Assembly: GCA_039794345.1 (NCBI GenBank)
Contig: JBDIVQ010000005.1
Span: 2,132 to 66,131 of the forward strand
Direction of reading: 5' to 3'
From: Phycisphaerae bacterium
Lineage (GTDB): Bacteria > Planctomycetota > Phycisphaerae > Phycisphaerales > UBA5793
DNA length: 64,000 bases
Part shown: piece after piece, positions 404-58,530 of the stretch
Layout: each line of letters begins with the position of its first letter
Numbering within the stretch: the stretch's first letter is position 1
Notes under the pieces: model-generated
Databases searched by the model: none
What the model was told of the DNA's origin: nothing
Seen by the model: the letters and a program-made list of their open reading frames with translations, nothing else
Made by a program: the position numbers and the translations under genes

Positions 404-704
404 GGGAGCCTCCCTCTCGGTTGCAGTCAGAATAACCGATTTCGGGGCGGCTGTCAAGGCAAAAAAGCGCAACTCCACGATAATTCTGAAAGAAGTCCTC
501 TGGCATGCGGTTGATGGCCGAGACCGGAAGTCGCAAGTCGCTCTGCCTGAGCGGTTTGCCTCCCGGGCGCCGAGGTGCCGGGGCCTGGGATCAAGGTCTC
601 GATCCGCCCGCCGCTTGCAATCTCGACGATCGGAAGTATGATTGTGGAGGGGTCTGTCCACGATTCCGCGATCACGTCGCCGCCCGACTCGGAGGAGAGT
701 AGCC

Positions 705-2456
705 ATGCGCCTGTGCCTGCTCCTGTTGGCCTGTCTGCTGTCGATCGTTTCACGGGCGGGCGCGACAGGAGGCGGTTCAGCACCGCCGGCTGCTGCGCCT
801 GAGGAACCAGCGCTGGTGCAGTGGATCTTCTTCACTGACAAGGGCATCGCCTCGCCGGCGCAACTCGACGCGGCGCTGGCCCGCGTTGCGGCGGCGGCCG
901 ATCCGCGCACCGTTGCCCGGCGTCAGGCGCGGCGGACGCTGCCGGGGCTTTTCGATGAGCGCGACCTGCCGGTTGTGCCCGGCTATGTCGAGGCGGTGAG
1001 GGCCACGGGCGCACGGGTTCGCGTTGCCTCGATGTGGGTCAATGCCGTGAGCGTGGAAGCGACGGCCGAGCAACTCGCGGCGATTGAGCGATTGCCATTC
1101 GTGAAGACCACTCAACCCGTGGCCCGTTCGCGCCGCATCGAGCCGCGCATCGCGCCGGCGCCCGCCGCCGCGCCGGATCAGCGCCCCGCGGGTTTCTACG
1201 GCCTGGCCGAAGATCAACTCGCGCAGATCAACCTCATCGAACTTCATAGCGCCGGCTACACCGGCCGCGATGTGCGCATCGGCGTCCTCGACACCGGCTT
1301 TCTCCGCACTCACGACGCCTTCAATCATCCGGAGCATCCCCTCAACGTCGTCGCTGAGTGGGACTTCGTCTTCGATGACGGCAACACCGCCAACGAGGGC
1401 AACGACCATCCCGACCAGCACAACCACGGCACGATCATCCTCGGCACGCTGGGGGGCTACCTCCCCGGTGAATACGTCGGCGGCGCCTACGACGCCTCCT
1501 TCATCCTCTGCAAGACGGAGGACATCCGCAGCGAGACGCCCGTCGAGGAGGATTATTACGTCGCGGGCCTCGAGTTCATCGAGGCCAACGGGGGCGACAT
1601 GGCGACGGCGTCGCTCATCTACATCGACTGGTACACCCAGGAGCAACTCGACGGCCGGACCGCGGTCTGCACCATCGGCGTCAACATTGCCACCGCCAAC
1701 GGCGTTCACTGCTGCAACGCGGCAGGCAACATGGGGCACGACCAGAATCCTAATACGTCTCACCTCGGCGCGCCGGCCGACGCCTTCCAGGTCATCACCT
1801 GCGGCGCGGTCGAGCCGACGGGCGAGATCGCCGGCTTTTCCTCCGACGGGCCGACGGCGGACGGGCGCGTCAAGCCCGAGGTGCTGGCGCGGGGCACGCA
1901 GGCGTGGAGCGTGGCGCCGTGGGACAACCACGGCTGGGCGGAGGCAGCGGGCACATCCATGTCCACCCCACAGGTTGCCGCCGTCGTCGCCTGCCTCATC
2001 GACGCCCGGCCGAACTGGACCGTCGATCAACTGCGCGAATCGCTGTTCACCACCGCGGATTATTACGTTCTCAACGGCACGTTCGATCCGCTGCACGTCC
2101 ACGGCTACGGAGTCGTCAACGCGTATGATGCGCTCGGGCTGCTGCGCCTCGCGCCGCCCGATCCCGGGACGGCGGGCGTGAGCAACACCCTCACGGCAAC
2201 GGAGGCGGAGCCGGGCAGTCGCGTGTATTTCATCTACTCAATGAGCGAGGGATCGACGGCGGTGCCGAACTGCCCCGGCGTGGAAGTGGAACTGCGCCGG
2301 CCGGTGACCGCCGGCTCCGCGGTGGCGGATGGAAACGGCGCAGCGCAACTCGTGCGTTTCGTCCCCGGGGGCGCGTCGGGTCGAACGGTTCACATTCAGG
2401 CGGTGGACGCCGCGGCTTGTCGAACGTCCAACCATGTCGTGCATCAGTTCCCCTGA
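705..2456 (+). CDS. secreted subtilisin-like serine peptidase (S8 family)
   Basis: ORF 642..2456. Catalytic contexts are VLDTGF (Asp), HNHGT (His) and GTSMSTPQVAAV (Ser). The internal ATG at 705 gives a signal-like MRLCLLLLACLLSIVSRAGA and follows GGAGGAG. The 21 upstream codons are Arg-rich and are probably not translated. Confidence 0.9.
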   Translation: MRLCLLLLACLLSIVSRAGATGGGSAPPAAAPEEPALVQWIFFTDKGIASPAQLDAALARVAAAADPRTVARRQARRTLPGLFDERDLPVVPGYVEAVRATGARVRVASMWVNAVSVEATAEQLAAIERLPFVKTTQPVARSRRIEPRIAPAPAAAPDQRPAGFYGLAEDQLAQINLIELHSAGYTGRDVRIGVLDTGFLRTHDAFNHPEHPLNVVAEWDFVFDDGNTANEGNDHPDQHNHGTIILGTLGGYLPGEYVGGAYDASFILCKTEDIRSETPVEEDYYVAGLEFIEANGGDMATASLIYIDWYTQEQLDGRTAVCTIGVNIATANGVHCCNAAGNMGHDQNPNTSHLGAPADAFQVITCGAVEPTGEIAGFSSDGPTADGRVKPEVLARGTQAWSVAPWDNHGWAEAAGTSMSTPQVAAVVACLIDARPNWTVDQLRESLFTTADYYVLNGTFDPLHVHGYGVVNAYDALGLLRLAPPDPGTAGVSNTLTATEAEPGSRVYFIYSMSEGSTAVPNCPGVEVELRRPVTAGSAVADGNGAAQLVRFVPGGASGRTVHIQAVDAAACRTSNHVVHQFP

Positions 2457-2516
2457 CGCCCGGTGAGTGCATCGAGATGCAGATCGCCCGGCACGCCGAG
2501 GTATTCGAGGGCGCCG

Positions 2517-2650
2517 GGTGCCGTGGTCCGGAGGGAGGCTTTGCGACCGGAGGGCCACGTCGTTGTGCGGACGGTCGATCACACCGGATCAATCGTCATT
2601 CGCGCGTCCGCGTGGCCCGCGCTCCCAGAGCCTCGCTTGACCACGGCACC
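2517..2650. repeat. 134-nt rod-like nested hairpin element at the ftsI 3' end
   Basis: Four nested helices. Perfect 12-bp terminal inverted repeat: ggtgccgtggtc 2517..2528 / gaccacggcacc 2639..2650. Inner helices: gaggct 2535..2540 / agcctc 2629..2634; gggccacg 2552..2559 / cgtggccc 2611..2618; gcggacg 2567..2573 / cgtccgc 2605..2611. Confidence 0.75.
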
Positions 2651-2669
2651 CTACGTCTCACAGTCGTGC

Positions 2670-4448
2670 TCAGTTCCGCGCCGTCTCATCCAGCGCCAGA
2701 TCGCCCGGCACGCCGAGGTATTCGAGGGCACGGTTCATCATCGTCGCGGCGACGGGTCCGCACACGGCGCCGCCGAAGTGGCCGAGGCTGCGGTCGGGGT
2801 CTTCGATGATGCAGAGGACGACGAGGCGGGGATCGTCCAGCGGCGCGCCGGCGATGAAACTGATGATGTAGCGGTCCTTGTGGTAGCCGCGGCCATCGCG
2901 CCGCGGCATTTCGGCCGTGCCCGACTTGCCGAACATGCGATAGCGCGCGACTTCGTTGGCCTTGCGTCCGCTTCCCAGCGTCATCACCTTTCGCATCGTC
3001 TGGCGGGTGAGATGAGCGGTCGATTCGAGCATGGGCCGCTGTGTAACATAAGGCACAATCGGCACATCCTGTGTGGGGACGATGAGGTTGATCGGGGGCA
3101 TCGAGCCGTCGCGGCAGAAGGCGGCGAAGGCCCGCACCATCTGGAGGGGCGTCACCGCGATCTCATGCCCCATCGAGACGCTCGTCTGCGTGTAGTGCGT
3201 CCACTCCTTCGGTATCGTGACAATGCCGCCGGTTTCGCCGGGCAGGCCGCTGCCGGTGGGCCGGCCGAAGCCGAAGTCCGCCACGCACTGCTGCAACTGC
3301 CGGTCCGTGAGTCGCAGCGCCGCCTGGGCCATGCCGATGTTGCTCGATTTGATCATCACGCCTTCCCAGGTGAGTTCGGGGTAGGGATAGGCGTCGCTGA
3401 TGTGCCGGCCGCGCGGCGTGCGGTAGGAGCCGTTGTGCGTGTTGAAGACTTCATCGATGGGGACGAGGCCGAGTTCCGTCACCCGCGCCCACACAAAGGA
3501 CTTGAACGTCGAGCCGGGTTCATAGGGATCGGTGATGCAGCGAAGGCGCGCCAGGCTGGGGTCGAGGGCGCGCAGCGGATCATCGGTGTAGGGGCCGTAG
3601 CCGGGGCGGTCGCGCAGGAGATCGGTCATGGCGAGGATCTCGCCGCTGTGGGGATCGAAGATCATCGCCCGCCCGCCGCCGGCATTGACCGCCTCGACGC
3701 CGGCGCGAATCTCCTCCTCGACGATGCGCTGCATCTCGACGTCGATGGCGAGGCGCACGTGGCGTCCGTCGGCGCCGGGAACGTGCCCGTCGCGCTCGAC
3801 CCACATCGCGTTGCGGTTGACGTCGCGCAGGTAGCGGAGGCGTCCGGGCCGGCCGGTGAGGACGGAGTTGTAGATGGCTTCGACGCCGCTGCGGCCGATG
3901 TGGTCGGTCCCGACGAGTCCGATGAGCGGGGCCGCGAGGTCGCCGTAGGGCCGGTGGCGCACGAGGACCGGCTCGACGCCGACGCCGCGGAAACTCGCGG
4001 TTCTCACCGCTTCGAGTTCCGCATCGGTGAGCAGGTCGATGAGCACGGCATAGCGCTTGTCGAGCCGCTCCTGCACCTTGCGATCGAGTTCGACGGGGTT
4101 GCGGCCGAGGAGGCTCGCGATGTCGATGGCGATGGTGTAGGGATCATCGACCTCCTGCGGATCGACAAAGAGGCGGTAGCCGACGCGGCTGGTGGCAAGG
4201 ACGCGGCCGCGCCGATCAAGGATGTCGCCGCGGTTGGCCATCTCGGGCCGGGTGGAACTGGTGAGCGGCGTATGGCGCACCAGGTTCTCGCTCGGCGCCG
4301 TCTGGAGTTGCGCCACGCGCGCCAGAACGAGCATCATCGCGCCGATGACCGCCGCCACGAGGAGGTTGAGCGCCAGGCCGAAGCGCCGGGTTTCAGATGC
4401 TGCGGGTCGAGCGGGTTCGAGGTGCATGGGGGCGTGCGGCCCGTTCAT
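2670..4448 (-). CDS. ftsI: peptidoglycan D,D-transpeptidase FtsI / class B penicillin-binding protein
   Basis: Contains the transpeptidase motifs STFK (GSTFKSF), SSN (KSSNIG) and KSGT (GKSGTAE). It has an N-terminal TM helix (LALNLLVAAVIGAMMLVLA). Its start overlaps the stop of the upstream ftsL-like gene by 4 nt. Confidence 0.9.
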   Translation of the reverse strand: MNGPHAPMHLEPARPAASETRRFGLALNLLVAAVIGAMMLVLARVAQLQTAPSENLVRHTPLTSSTRPEMANRGDILDRRGRVLATSRVGYRLFVDPQEVDDPYTIAIDIASLLGRNPVELDRKVQERLDKRYAVLIDLLTDAELEAVRTASFRGVGVEPVLVRHRPYGDLAAPLIGLVGTDHIGRSGVEAIYNSVLTGRPGRLRYLRDVNRNAMWVERDGHVPGADGRHVRLAIDVEMQRIVEEEIRAGVEAVNAGGGRAMIFDPHSGEILAMTDLLRDRPGYGPYTDDPLRALDPSLARLRCITDPYEPGSTFKSFVWARVTELGLVPIDEVFNTHNGSYRTPRGRHISDAYPYPELTWEGVMIKSSNIGMAQAALRLTDRQLQQCVADFGFGRPTGSGLPGETGGIVTIPKEWTHYTQTSVSMGHEIAVTPLQMVRAFAAFCRDGSMPPINLIVPTQDVPIVPYVTQRPMLESTAHLTRQTMRKVMTLGSGRKANEVARYRMFGKSGTAEMPRRDGRGYHKDRYIISFIAGAPLDDPRLVVLCIIEDPDRSLGHFGGAVCGPVAATMMNRALEYLGVPGDLALDETARN

Positions 4449-4804
4449 CGGACCGCCTCCGTCGCGGCTGTCTCCAGCGCGCGATCAGGCAGCACCGCGG
4501 AGGCCGGCAGTTCGACGAGGTAACACTCGCTCAGCAGCAGCGGCACCAGCCGTTCACCGGTTTCCCGCTCGAGGGCGGAGGCGAGGGCGGCGACGCGATC
4601 CTGGCGGAGTCGCTCGTGAATCGCCACGCGCAGGCGCCAGGAGCGCTCCTCGTGCTGGAGGAGCCGCCGATGGGTGACCGACATCTGGTACGCCGCTTCA
4701 ATGCGCTGCTGGCGGATGACCAGCAGGCCGCACGACGTAGCGCCGGCGATGAGGACACAGACCGCGACCTTGGGAACGAGCGCCATATCCCACTTCATCG
4801 ACAC
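4445..4804 (-). CDS. FtsL-like cell-division membrane protein (small bitopic, coiled-coil)
   Basis: 119 aa with a single N-terminal TM (VAVCVLIAGATSCGLLVI) followed by a Arg/Glu-rich helical region. It sits immediately upstream of ftsI with an ATGA overlap. The assignment rests on architecture and position, not on a sequence motif. Confidence 0.55.
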   Translation of the reverse strand: MSMKWDMALVPKVAVCVLIAGATSCGLLVIRQQRIEAAYQMSVTHRRLLQHEERSWRLRVAIHERLRQDRVAALASALERETGERLVPLLLSECYLVELPASAVLPDRALETAATEAVR

Positions 4805-55639: not shown

Positions 55640-57121
55640 TCATGAGTCGAGACGTTCCCGCACCAGTTGGATGAAGCGCTGCCCGCGCTGCTCGAAGTTG
55701 GTGAACTGGTCCCAACTGGCGCAGCCGGGGCTGAGCAGGAGAATGTCGCCGGCCTCCATTCGCGCCATGGCGCTGCGGACCGCAACGTCCAGCGTGCGGC
55801 AGTGCAGGCACGTCCCCGTCGGCGCAAGGTCGTGGATCCGCTCGCCCACCGCGCCGATGGCGTAGAGTCGCGCGACGCGCTCGCCCAGCGCCGCCAGCGG
55901 CGCGAGATCCGCCTTCTTGTCGTACCCGCCGACGATGAGGTGCAGCCGCGCGGGATCATCGAAGGACTCGACCGCGAGCGCGGCAGCGGCGGGGGTGGTG
56001 CACTTGGAGTCGTTGTAGAAGCGCCGGCCGTCCTTCGTCTGCGCCACGAGTTCGAGTCGGTGGGGAAGGCCGCGGAAGTCCGCCAGCGCGGCGATTGATT
56101 CGTCAAATGGCACGCCAGCCGCACGGCATGCCTCAGCGGCCATGAGCGCATTGAGGCGATTGTGCCCGCCGGGGATGAGCAGGCTGATCCCCGCGAATCG
56201 CAGGTCGTCCGCGGCGATGTCAGTGCGCTCGACGCCTTCGCTGGTCGGCCAGTCGCGCAGGCCGGGGCCGAGGATCGCGTGATCACCGGGGTGCTGGTGC
56301 GCCAGCAGGTGCTGCTTGGAGGCGCGGTAGTGATCGAGCGAGCCATGCCAGTCGGCGTGGTTGTCGCTGAAGTTCGTGATGACGGCGACGTGGGGGGACC
56401 ATTTGTGGGTTTTGGTTAGCCGCGACGCGGAGGCTTTGCGCAGCGGAGCGCGGGCGTGCGACGTTGAAAAGTCACCCCCACCCCCGCCCTCCCCCGCAGA
56501 GCCGGGGGAGGGAGTGCCTTCGGTTAGCCGCGACGCGAAGGCTTTGCGCAGCGGAGCGCGGTCGTCCGCAGTCCCCGCGCCCCCCAGCCACCACAGCATC
56601 GCGCTGGACAACTCGAGCACGACCCACTCCTCCGCGCCGATCTCGACGCCGAGCAGCGAGCCGCCGATGTTGCCGCCGAGGTGCGCGGCGCCGCAGTGCG
56701 CCCGCAGGATGTGATGAATCATCGCGCTCGTTGTGGACTTGCCCGCCGTACCTGTCACGCCGATGATGCGATCGCGATCGGGCAGTGAATCGATGAGCAG
56801 TTCGATCTCCGTGGTGATCTCTGCGCCCGCCTCGCGTGCCGCGTTGAGGAACCGGTTCTCCCACGGCCGCGGCACCGCCGGATTCGCCACGACCAGGTCC
56901 GTCTCGCGGAAGTCGCGCTCCTCGTGCCCGCCGAGAACCAGCGTCACCTGTCCGGCATCAACCAAATCGCGCACGGATTCGAGCGAATCGGCGAGTTGAT
57001 CGGCAGAGGCGAGATCGGTCAGCAGCACGCGGCAGCCGCAGCGCTGCACGAGCCAGCGCGTTACTCCGACGCCGCCGCCGAAGTGCCCGAGGCCCATCAC
57101 GGTGACCCGCTGTTGCGTCAT
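55640..57121 (-). CDS. murD: UDP-N-acetylmuramoylalanine--D-glutamate ligase, carrying an in-frame repeat insertion
   Basis: VTVMGLGHFGGGVG Rossmann N-domain. GVTGTAGKSTT P-loop. VLELSS strand. ITNFSDNHADWHG. C-terminal YNDSKCTTP and LLLSPGCASWDQF. About 57 extra codons lie between VLELSS and AVITNF. Confidence 0.9.
   Translation of the reverse strand: MTQQRVTVMGLGHFGGGVGVTRWLVQRCGCRVLLTDLASADQLADSLESVRDLVDAGQVTLVLGGHEERDFRETDLVVANPAVPRPWENRFLNAAREAGAEITTEIELLIDSLPDRDRIIGVTGTAGKSTTSAMIHHILRAHCGAAHLGGNIGGSLLGVEIGAEEWVVLELSSAMLWWLGGAGTADDRAPLRKAFASRLTEGTPSPGSAGEGGGGGDFSTSHARAPLRKASASRLTKTHKWSPHVAVITNFSDNHADWHGSLDHYRASKQHLLAHQHPGDHAILGPGLRDWPTSEGVERTDIAADDLRFAGISLLIPGGHNRLNALMAAEACRAAGVPFDESIAALADFRGLPHRLELVAQTKDGRRFYNDSKCTTPAAAALAVESFDDPARLHLIVGGYDKKADLAPLAALGERVARLYAIGAVGERIHDLAPTGTCLHCRTLDVAVRSAMARMEAGDILLLSPGCASWDQFTNFEQRGQRFIQLVRERLDS
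56414..56561. repeat. direct-repeat pair with central hairpin embedded in frame in murD
   Basis: 40-nt units ggttagccgcgacgcg[g/a]aggctttgcgcagcggagcgcgg at 56414..56453 and 56522..56561 (39/40 identical, 108-nt period). A perfect 10-bp stem lies between them: ccctcccccg 56487..56496 / cgggggaggg 56503..56512. Confidence 0.85.
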
Positions 57122-58530
57122 GGCTGGCCGTAGCGGTGGCGGTATTTGCGGTCGAGCGCCTTCTGCTTGTTGTCGAGATCGACTTCCGCCCCGTCGATGT
57201 ATGCGGCGAGGACGTGGGTGGTGATTTCGAGCGGATCGCCGTCGGTGATGATGAGCGTGGCGTTCTTGCCGGTTTCGAGCGAGCCGAGCACCTTGCCCGC
57301 TCCGATGATTTCGGCGGCGCTGAGTGTGACGGCGCGCAGAGCGATCTCAGCGGGCAGGCCGTACGCCGCCGACTTCGCCGCGTGATAGGGCAGGCTGCGC
57401 TCGTGGGCCGGCTCTTCGCCGCTGGCGATGCAGAAGCGAATGCCCGCCTCGTGAAGCGCCAGCGGCAGCGTGAAAGGCTGGTCGTGCGCAAGGTCGCGGC
57501 GCGTCGGCATGCGGTGCGTGCCGACGACGATAACGGGAACGTCGTGAGCCTTGAGCAGGTCGAGGCACTGGTCCGCGTCGGCACCGCCGACGATCACCGC
57601 GCGCAGGTTCATGCGGTTGGCCCACGCGACGGCCGAACGGATCTGCGCCGCATCGCCCGCGTGAATGAAGACCGGCACGAGGCGGTCGATCGCCGGCAGC
57701 ATCGACTCGAGGCGCAGGTCAACGGGGAAGGTGGGATCGGCGCTGCGGGCGCGCTGATAGGCCCTGGCCTCCTCGAAGGCGCGGTCGATGCGGTCGAGAT
57801 TCTCTTTGCTGCGGCGGAGTTGCTCCTCTTCGCTCTCCTCGATCCACCACGCCGTGCGCGGCCGGACGTTGGGCCAGCGCACCACCAGCCCGGCGCGGTC
57901 GGCGATGGTGAGTTCTTCCGTCGTCCAGCCGTCGAGGCGGATCGTCGAGCAATAACCCGAGATTGTCCCTCCCTGCGGCACGACGAGGGCGGTGAGGATG
58001 CCGTTGGCGCGTGTGACGGGGATGAGCGCGCTGTCGGGGTTGACGGCGATGACGGCGCGGACCTCGGGCGTGATCGCGCCGGTTTCGCTCACGTCGATCG
58101 TGGCGCGGACGGCGCCGATCTCGCTCAGCCCCAGCGTCGTGTCGGCGCTGATCAGGCCGGGATAGACGTGCTTCCCCGCGGCGTCGATCACTTCCGTCTC
58201 GCCCGCGGCGGCGTAGGCGCCGGCGCCCACGTCGGTGATGATCCCGTCGCGGAAGACGATGTAGCCGCGCTCGATCGACTCGCTCGACACCGGGTGGATC
58301 GTCGCGTTGACGATGGCGATGGTCTTCTCCTGCGGCTGCCCGGGGATCTGGATCGACTGGGCGTGCGCCGATGCCACGAGGCACAGCGCCGCCGACACAG
58401 CGAGAAGCACTGAGGCGGACGCCCACGATGAGGCTCTGCGAATCGTGGGGTGCTCTCCGCGAATCGCAGCGAGCCTTCGCTCCCCTGCGCAGAGCCTTCG
58501 GGTCGCGGCTAAACAGGTCATCAGGTTCAT
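57118..58530 (-). CDS. amidohydrolase-family protein (secreted), metal-binding HxH motif apparently absent
   Basis: Part of ORF 57118..58824, starting at MNLMTCL (ATG after GGAGGAA). Signal-like ASASVLLAVSAALCLVASAHA. Amidohydrolase N-terminal pattern (IVNATIHPVS...GKHVYPGLISADTTLG), where ISAD replaces the usual xDxHxH. The stop overlaps the murD start (ATGA). Confidence 0.75.
   Translation of the reverse strand: MNLMTCLAATRRLCAGERRLAAIRGEHPTIRRASSWASASVLLAVSAALCLVASAHAQSIQIPGQPQEKTIAIVNATIHPVSSESIERGYIVFRDGIITDVGAGAYAAAGETEVIDAAGKHVYPGLISADTTLGLSEIGAVRATIDVSETGAITPEVRAVIAVNPDSALIPVTRANGILTALVVPQGGTISGYCSTIRLDGWTTEELTIADRAGLVVRWPNVRPRTAWWIEESEEEQLRRSKENLDRIDRAFEEARAYQRARSADPTFPVDLRLESMLPAIDRLVPVFIHAGDAAQIRSAVAWANRMNLRAVIVGGADADQCLDLLKAHDVPVIVVGTHRMPTRRDLAHDQPFTLPLALHEAGIRFCIASGEEPAHERSLPYHAAKSAAYGLPAEIALRAVTLSAAEIIGAGKVLGSLETGKNATLIITDGDPLEITTHVLAAYIDGAEVDLDNKQKALDRKYRHRYGQP
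58420..58514. repeat. composite of the murD-type and nuoJ-type repeat units inside the amidohydrolase 5' coding region
   Basis: The reverse complement of 58478..58514 matches the murD unit at 33/37. The reverse complement of 58420..58450 matches nuoJ 33705..33735 at 30/31. A partial extra unit (gcgaatcgcagcgagcc) lies between them. Confidence 0.8.

Follow-up and report, generated by a model that had tools for sequence, protein, structure and literature searches.

The Correia elements of Neisseria and the ERIC/IRU sequences (enterobacterial repetitive intergenic consensus, or intergenic repeat units) of enterobacteria are non-coding imperfect palindromes of 100-150 nt with conserved termini. 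They are present in many copies per genome, lie between genes near gene ends, can form a single long hairpin in the transcript, and differ in presence or absence between relatives. Here we describe a 136-nt palindrome, hereafter the rod, that lies between the converging 3' ends of ftsI and a peptidase S8 gene in a 64,000-nt stretch of a Phycisphaerae bacterium (assembly GCA_039794345.1, contig JBDIVQ010000005.1; the whole stretch is called the window) and that shares these features. The rod is in kind a bacterial MITE-like (miniature inverted-repeat transposable element) or ERIC-like palindromic repeat. Unlike the Correia and ERIC elements, to which its sequence is unrelated, it is hosted by Planctomycetota (Phycisphaerales), has a hypervariable centre between two invariant helices, and is without a known partner transposase. 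Moreover, it lacks a short fixed duplication such as TA, whereas a subset of its copies carry flanking duplications of 19-130 nt.

The closest known behaviour is that of the insertion sequences IS1549 and IS1634, which are flanked by direct repeats of variable length (8-514 bp) for which there is no mechanistic model (PMC2266710). The rod is alike in having long variable direct repeats, found at 8 of 51 copies and checked in two cases against empty sites. However, IS1549 and IS1634 are autonomous elements of 1.5-2 kb with a DDE transposase and ends that begin with C, whereas the rod is 136 nt long, encodes nothing, and has GGGTGCC ends. The end consensus of the IS1634 family (C-----YT) is not found in the rod, which ends in GGGTGCCGTGGTC with position -2 unconserved, and no DDE transposase lacking the full YREK motif (the IS1634 type) was seen near any rod copy. 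We also rejected a relationship with the REP/BIME palindromes (repetitive extragenic palindromes and their mosaic elements), which one account gives as 20-40 nt long with a GTAG or CGTC head (PMC3733652), as the rod measures 136 nt and has the ends GGGTGCC...GGCACCC.

The features of the locus are as follows, where a ghost is an unused copy of a gene end, and an empty site is the same gene junction without a rod.

642..2456, plus strand: peptidase S8 (subtilase) gene, convergent with ftsI; Pfam Peptidase_S8; the same convergent neighbour is found in relatives
2424..2512, no strand: left target copy, comprising the true S8 3' end (to 2456) and the ghost ftsI end
2444-2512, minus strand: ghost ftsI end, reading ALEYLGVPGDLHLDALTGRQGN and a stop; collinear with the live ftsI end of empty-site relatives
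2480..2512, no strand: 33-nt identical block, ghost copy
2513..2515, no strand: filler GCC, three bases between the left target copy and the rod
2516..2651, no strand: rod element, 136 nt when the G...C pair at position 13 of the terminal helix is counted; one member of a dispersed palindromic repeat family that encodes nothing
2516..2528, plus strand: left terminal inverted repeat GGGTGCCGTGGTC, 100% complementary to 2639-2651; invariant in the family alignment (A2)
2553..2559, plus strand: inner conserved helix, left arm GGCCACG; invariant or nearly so in A2
2611..2617, plus strand: inner conserved helix, right arm CGTGGCC; invariant or nearly so in A2
2639..2651, plus strand: right terminal inverted repeat GACCACGGCACCC, pairing with 2516-2528; invariant in A2
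2652: filler, a single base on the other side of the rod
2653..2729, no strand: right target copy, comprising the live ftsI end and a decayed S8 3'-end ghost
2653-2669: decayed S8 3'-end ghost, last ~7 codons, from local alignment
2670-2729, minus strand: live ftsI end, reading ALEYLGVPGDLALDETARN and a stop
2697..2729, no strand: 33-nt identical block, live copy, inside ftsI
2670..4448, minus strand: ftsI, class B penicillin-binding protein, 592 aa; Pfam PBP_dimer and Transpeptidase, and homologues

A preliminary description of this locus had reported two perfect copies of a 33-mer, one of them within the 3' end of ftsI and the other followed by a diverged ghost of the ftsI tail. A direct sequence check found the 33-mer CAGATCGCCCGGCACGCCGAGGTATTCGAGGGC in exact copies at 2480-2512 and 2697-2729, two in all, the second lying inside the open reading frame (ORF) 2670-4448(-); a repeat finder stretches the match to 43 nt at 91% identity. 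The FtsI-type protein encoded by this ORF (2670-4448, minus strand) ends in the live tail listed above. After the first 33-mer, the minus-strand frame reads HLDALTGRQGN to a stop at 2444-2446, which places its end 13 nt within the coding end of S8 (stop codon 2454-2456), so that the ghost tail enters the S8 gene as had been described. The terminal inverted repeat of the rod, given earlier as 12 bp, is perfect, but it is 13 bp long (2516-2528 / 2639-2651). The factual statements of the preliminary description were otherwise all correct.

Homology between the two flanks of the rod extends beyond the 33-mer, as local alignment pairs 2424-2512 with 2653-2729 over ~77-89 nt. With the 33-mer removed, the extension of this homology still exceeded that in 99.8% of shuffles and random window segments (p ~0.001-0.002). 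Past the 33-mer, the two ftsI tails pair first, followed by the end of S8, whose last ~7 codons, ACGTCCAACCATGTCGTGCATCAGTTCC, have a degenerate counterpart beside the rod, ACGTCTCA-CA-GTCGTGC-TCAGTTCC (2653-2678). A duplication of the target thus exists at this site, but its length is ~77-89 nt (2424-2512 vs 2653-2729) and not 33 nt. The order at the locus is target copy, three nucleotides, rod, one nucleotide, target copy, with the left copy serving S8 and the right copy serving ftsI. Outside the 33-mer, the remaining 44-56 nt of the two copies differ by ~12 gapped positions and many substitutions. A recent duplication in place would yield identical copies, and we therefore rejected a recent in-place origin.

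A block of perfect identity followed by an abruptly divergent homologous gene end is also the classic pattern of attL and attR, the attachment (att) sites left by integrative elements at gene 3' ends, where a gene end supplied by the element lies to one side of an identical core and the original end, now displaced, to the other. We therefore considered whether the 33-mer could be the att core of a site-specific element that brought in a replacement ftsI end and was later reduced to 184 nt. However, only 184 nt lie between the 33-mers, with no integrase or other ORF in them, and there is no recombinase gene with the rod. The insert also holds the S8-end ghost, which makes it a copy of the local junction rather than element cargo. 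Elsewhere, the rods are flanked by other local duplications that differ at each locus, which a single att specificity cannot explain. We thus rejected the att footprint as the class of this element, and consider such an origin very improbable.

If the rod had been inserted at the ftsI 3' end with duplication of its target, relatives should include an uninterrupted junction, and the preliminary description had proposed a search for it. The FtsI homologues P0002 (91% identity) and P0004 (89%) end in HLDGLAAVQGN and ALDSLAGAQGN, which are tails of the ghost type. In the P0002 lineage (L001) and the P0004 lineage (L003 and L004), ftsI overlaps the convergent S8 gene by 13 nt, and these three contigs align collinearly with the ghost copy of the window while lacking exactly 217 nt and any rod. 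A metagenome contig of the P0002 type, L066, provides a further empty site, so that the sample consists of two related lineages, represented by three assembled contigs and one metagenome contig. In all four, the 217-nt block is absent and ftsI runs directly, without a rod, into a ghost-type tail that overlaps S8 by 13 nt. Together with the many rod copies found elsewhere, these empty sites support the core of the earlier interpretation, an element inserted at the ftsI 3' end with target duplication.

More distant relatives (77-80% identity) have short FtsI tails (ALDEPARD, ALDQPARN, and others). Among them, L008 has a 78-nt spacer with a textbook bidirectional terminator between ftsI and S8, and L005 has an additional gene between the two. 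The long tail of the subclade arose through loss of the spacer, after which the ftsI frame continued antisense to the end of S8; its ending, ...CAG GGG AAC TGA, is complementary to CAG TTC CCC TGA of S8. In the P0003 lineage, the short-tailed ftsI of L002 is followed by no S8 gene, and a reading that by eye resembles the C-terminus of an IS66-type transposase lies at 4356-4745 on the minus strand.

The rod folds as one unbranched hairpin of 136 nt. As RNA, the predicted energy is -92 kcal/mol for the plus strand (z = -7.8) and -84.2 kcal/mol for the minus strand (z = -6.2); as DNA, the two strands fold at -45.5 and -44.3 kcal/mol, and no shuffled rod sequence folds as well in either form. The bases just outside it are CTACGTC on the plus strand and GGCGCCC on the minus strand. 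No ORF of at least 60 aa is contained in the rod (2516-2651), and the ORFs that overlap or span it (2230-2592(-), 2238-2582(-), 2417-2809(+), and 2463-4523(+)) are assumed to be spurious.

To look for other copies, as the preliminary description had also proposed, one genome per species was scanned with the pattern GGTGCCGTGGTC-N95-125-GACCACGGCACC. We obtained 54 loci (55 matches), of which 52 were true family copies; three matches, in an Actinomycetota metagenome-assembled genome (MAG), in Tsukamurella, and in 'Bpl_9', were rejected as chance. Many copies thus exist in related genomes, with ~20 loci in the MAG OFTM8, eight in KLAP200, and eight in CSSed162cmB_545. The carriers are mostly Phycisphaerales or Planctomycetota MAGs, along with a few records titled Vicinamibacteraceae or Isosphaeraceae (labels as titled). 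The 13-bp terminal inverted repeat is invariant across the 20 copies aligned in A2, and the flanks outside it are not conserved between copies. The arms are conserved yet asymmetric, both inner arms (GGCCACG...CGTGGCC) are exact in 46 of 53 copies including that of the window, and the centre is variable and differs between subfamilies. The core CCACG/CGTGG thus recurs four times along the rod, with alternating orientation. A family profile separates the strands well (88 bits on the plus strand of the window rod, 50 bits on the minus strand) and finds additional imperfect and half copies within the loci, but no second rod in the 64 kb of the window.

We found that the copies occupy unrelated contexts in both orientations relative to neighbouring genes, and that no protein family recurs beside them. 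Pairs of rod ends 0.3-4 kb apart enclose ordinary genes (mcsA/mcsB-like, multihaem cytochrome) and no transposase, and no autonomous insertion sequence with rod termini was present in the 8-kb neighbourhoods of the 54 loci or in the window. The lack of a recurrent neighbour protein and the ordinary genes between end pairs indicate that the rods are non-autonomous. BLAST searches with the rod gave no match among plasmids (PLSDB) or phages (INPHARED), and a pattern scan of IMG/VR found no rod. Literature searches returned only unrelated primers for the terminal 12-mers and nothing specific on MITEs of Planctomycetes. Integron attC sites carry the R''/R' core sites RYYYAAC...GTTRRRY and lie in cassette arrays beside an integrase; we rejected this identity, as the rod termini are off this consensus and the copies are scattered between convergent housekeeping genes rather than arrayed. 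With respect to MITEs, the rod is small and non-coding (136 nt), has conserved terminal inverted repeats (13 bp in 20 aligned copies), occurs in multiple dispersed copies (~20 with exact terminal repeats in OFTM8, eight in KLAP200, one in the window), and has filled and empty orthologous sites at ftsI/S8 and at L022 compared with L068/L069. It departs from them in having no short target duplication of fixed length, as its repeats, where present, are 19-130 nt long and variable. Together, these results identify a family of dispersed non-autonomous palindromic repeats in Phycisphaerales genomes that has apparently not been described before.

The stability of the hairpin on both strands and its position between convergent genes could also fit a non-mobile structured RNA or terminator that evolved in place, with the flanking repeat an unrelated local duplication. 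Across the family, the oriented strand has a slight advantage in stability (3.2 kcal/mol; 188 G-U pairs vs 131). This strand is the more stable one in 34 copies vs 18 and lies in the same sense as the upstream gene in 5 cases vs 3; the bias is weak, and we draw no conclusion from it about action at the RNA or the DNA level. A permissive Rfam search (2000-3200) returned nothing at E <= 10 over the rod, a gathering-score search of 10 other loci matched no rod, and thus no Rfam family, a possibility that the preliminary description had raised, covers the element. Along with this lack of an Rfam match, the absence of a U-tract or terminator call speaks against an origin in place, as do the dozens of copies in unrelated contexts and both orientations, the presence/absence differences at two loci, and the 21-fold enrichment of flanking repeats at rods. 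We find such an origin scarcely credible.

Several loci carry more elaborate arrangements. In a subfamily of OFTM8 (L031 3613-3748, L041, L043, L061, L038, and L042), the rod sits inside a longer palindrome of ~220 nt with the outer ends CTAGAGC...GCTCTAG, and these copies are near-identical to each other. L044 contains a full rod with an adjoining half rod twice (3782-3976 and 4564-4767), ~780 nt apart and at 91% identity; this pair is a segmental duplication of the rod-plus-half-rod unit, with an RNase P RNA nearby at 2643-3091. At L034 (1625-1864), three rod 3' halves stand in tandem with a period of ~70 nt at the beginning of a multihaem cytochrome gene, either within it or immediately ahead of it.

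To examine whether long flanking repeats are a trait of the family, 200 nt on each side of every rod were compared with a score threshold of at least 16. Direct repeats reached this score at 8 of 51 rods, compared with 6 of 688 positions drawn at random from the same sequences (odds ratio 21, Fisher p = 6.5e-7). Their lengths are 77-89 nt in the window, ~130 nt at L012, 81-130 nt at L013, 69-78 nt at L030, 53 nt at L059, 34-42 nt at L043, 33-40 nt at L022, and 19 nt at L032. At L043, a long-form copy, the ~34-nt repeat abuts the outer ends of the longer palindrome. L059 has the layout X-rod-X-rod-X, where X is the repeat, which would be expected if flanking repeats recombined unequally. No short repeat shared by the copies adjoins the rod ends. 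Long flanking duplications of variable length are therefore a recurrent property of the rod family.

A second filled/empty comparison was provided by L022, in which the rod lies between two copies of a ~33-nt spacer (X-rod-X). This spacer begins at the stop codon that the upstream gene used ancestrally and ends at the start codon of the gene that follows. L068 and L069, relatives with protein identities of 89% and 81%, have a single spacer without a rod. The ancestral TGA of the upstream gene is still in use in L068, and L022 stops two codons earlier. In both verified filled/empty pairs, the duplicated segment holds the boundaries of both neighbouring genes, so that neither gene was damaged. 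In L070, another palindromic element (CCCCCAAGGCTCCAAGACCCCAAG...CTTGGGGTCTTGGGGG, 2913-3000) occupies the intergenic spot where L022 has its rod. Such short spacers seem to have received hairpin repeats more than once. A candidate third pair, the full rod at the asd/metallophosphatase junction of L021, was rejected, as relatives at 89% protein identity keep the rod 3' half at the same place and the site is old rather than empty. In these relatives, L072 (~3569-3640) and L073 (~3548-3625), only the 3' half GCGTGGCCTGCGCTCGCAGAGCCTCGCTTAGACCACGGCACC is left of an orthologous, old, and partly deleted copy.

Rods usually begin a few tens of nucleotides past a stop codon. Using gene calls from a simple script of our own based on G+C content at third codon positions, which are approximate, we found a convergent context in 14 of 22 intergenic regions with a rod and in 31 of 182 rod-free ones from the same DNA (odds ratio 8.5, p = 8.9e-6). 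This enrichment would fit selection against insertions at other places, a target preference, or a useful hairpin between converging transcripts. Judged by its position, the rod may serve as a bidirectional terminator, and the -92 kcal/mol hairpin may help to separate the two converging transcription units. We rejected its identity as an intrinsic terminator, as no U-run follows the stem and a scan of 2200-3000 finds none on either strand; a promoter scan of the same interval was empty. The bidirectional terminator of L008 is similar in lying between the ftsI and S8 stops and in being a G+C-rich hairpin usable on both strands, but it has a short stem with A- and T-runs, whereas the rod is 136 nt long and has no T-run on either side.

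The two target copies in the window differ in their histories. The live tail, GCG CTG GAT GAG ACG GCG CGG AAC TGA, matches the short tails of L002 and L005 at 22 and 21 of 27 positions, about the gene-wide identity, and its own ghost at only 18 of 27, with a 9-nt indel. The ghost shares its CAT codon with L001, and its CTC insertion and QGN ending with both L001 and L003. By these comparisons, the live tail is of the ancestral short type and the ghost of the derived type shared with the empty-site relatives, a distinction absent from the preliminary description. The four closest lineages (the window, L001, L002, and L003) are about equidistant, at 82-85% nucleotide identity. Informative sites in ftsI codons 20-440 favour grouping the window with L001 (31 vs 21 vs 21); this preference is lost in codons 440-584 (4 vs 15 vs 11), and the best breakpoint lies near codon 408, with window and L001 grouped at 31 of 68 sites before it and 5 of 43 after it (permutation p = 0.0045). 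Across the four lineages sampled, ftsI therefore has a mosaic structure, which indicates homologous exchange within the clade, independent of the rod. The differing histories of the copies and the ftsI breakpoint suggest import of the filled allele by way of homologous recombination, its crossover lying in the 33-mer.

We propose that the rod is one copy of a MITE- or ERIC-like family, that it is bracketed by a long target duplication, and that the filled allele was moved or reshuffled by recombination, a reading to which we assign a probability of roughly 0.7. In the ancestor of the subclade, ftsI and S8 would have been convergent and overlapping by 13 nt. A rod would then have been placed between the genes together with a direct target duplication of ~77-89 nt, which the insertion itself would have created. 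S8 would thereby retain a genuine end in the left copy (2424-2456) and ftsI one in the right copy (2670-2729), and the unused halves would become ghosts; long duplications of this kind would make insertion into packed or overlapping gene ends harmless. A related lineage that was already filled would have donated a tract that included the rod and S8 ghost as well as the short tail and the 3' third of the ftsI gene. One crossover within the 33-mer, the only long identical block, would leave both 33-mers identical by construction.

A different history would date the insertion to an ancestor shared by the lineages of the window, L001, and L003, with the ghost drifting into the long tail, L001 and L003 losing the rod through the 33-nt repeats so that the ghost tail became live, and gene conversion keeping the 33-mers of the window identical. 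Recombination between the 33-mers would indeed give exactly the empty sequence seen, and decay is far advanced in the S8 ghost at 2653-2669, where ~20 nt contain three single-base gaps and two mismatches. Moreover, rods can persist at a locus across genomes with 89% protein identity, and long tails vary among lineages, as once-neutral sequence would. However, such a history requires two independent precise deletions, or else an unresolved sister grouping of L001 and L003, together with long homogenisation of a 33-nt tract whose orthologues differ by 3-5 nt among lineages. The frame, length, and stop of the ghost tail are kept in all three lineages, and the ftsI breakpoint is not predicted. We regard an old insertion as unlikely, though deserving of serious weight.

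The pairing of tails might instead occur in no single cell, if the contig of this MAG joined two coexisting strains, one filled and the other empty or filled differently, by a path switch at the 33-mer. The identical block is exactly 33 nt long, a common k-mer size for de Bruijn assembly, and the arrangement is seen in no second genome. For the window FtsI, the sole record is an NCBI contig of 69 kb, which fits a MAG, and the relatives are mostly MAGs or metagenome contigs. The junction of rod, GCC, and 33-mer must nevertheless be present in real reads, which makes the duplication genuine. Rods in many independent assemblies are surrounded by long flanking repeats that contain mismatches, and a chimera leaves the S8 ghost unexplained. 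We judge an assembly artefact to be improbable.

Several observations weigh against insertion followed by recombination of a filled allele. No donor lineage with a rod at ftsI/S8 was found by homologue search or in metagenome scans: a scan for the ftsI end followed by a rod found none, and a scan for the junction of ftsI end and tail gave one more empty site and two chance matches only. The source of the window is a MAG, in which an assembly path that passes from one strain to another at the 33-mer could give the appearance of a mosaic. The orthologous half-rods of L072 and L073 show that rods can be old at a locus, and an old ftsI/S8 insertion is thus possible. Neither a mobilising enzyme nor a full-length parent was detected in the 8-kb neighbourhoods of the 54 loci or in the window. 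Only one rod lies in the window, and it is probably an inactive instance. No U-tract or T-run is present at the window rod, and no terminator was called on either strand (scan 2200-3000). Finally, only ~16% of copies have long flanking repeats, most rods having none, and five of six copies of the young-looking 220-nt OFTM8 long form are without a flanking repeat. The scarcity of repeats, in this young subfamily in particular, means that duplication may not be an obligatory product of insertion; either repeats decay or they arise in some events only.

More tentatively, and with considerable doubt, we suggest a mechanism for the family as a whole. The rods could represent a class of mobile hairpins that insert through two widely and variably spaced strand breaks, duplicating tens to >100 nt, with no linked transposase. 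The duplications would allow harmless settling in overlapping gene ends and would act as homology arms, through which ordinary homologous recombination could excise a filled allele, amplify it (X-rod-X-rod-X), or transfer it to related genomes, and the four conserved GRCCACG heptamers would be enzyme binding sites.

The preliminary description had also held that the rod shares a core with repeats near murD. The 12-mer GGAGGCTTTGCG of the rod does occur at 56429-56440, but the family profile misses the murD repeats. We therefore rejected these as homologues of the rod; they are a repeat family of their own, with the 12-mer alone in common.

56411-56460 and 56519-56568 (direct), 58478-58515 (inverted): murD repeats, copies of a ~50-nt dispersed repeat, GGTTAGCCGCGACGCGGAGGCTTTGCGCAGCGGAGCGCGG

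The murD repeat is also found in related genomes (L023 7201-7251, L015 4498-4530, and L013 4273-4303). Between the two direct copies, at ~56475-56516, lies a C-run/G-run hairpin, CCCCCACCCCCGCCCTCCCCCGCAGAGCCGGGGGAGGGAGTGCC, that recurs at L030 3033-3074, at L021 3960-3999, and downstream of asd in L072, and looks like a third small repeat family.

The rods provide a well-defined and apparently undescribed repeat family for Phycisphaerales (Planctomycetota). Two clean before/after comparisons show a 136-nt hairpin element sitting in overlapping or abutting gene ends by means of a long target duplication. Long variable target duplications are documented, as far as we found, for two insertion sequences only (PMC2266710), and a small and abundant element with such duplications would be well suited to solving their mechanism; the family and its duplications are thus worth a dedicated census. 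For annotation, the rods explain ghost gene ends and false ORF extensions by convergent genes in Phycisphaerales MAGs, and they mark sites at which an assembly from short reads may pass from one strain to another. Should the hairpin insulate converging transcription, a selfish repeat would stand in place of a missing terminator.

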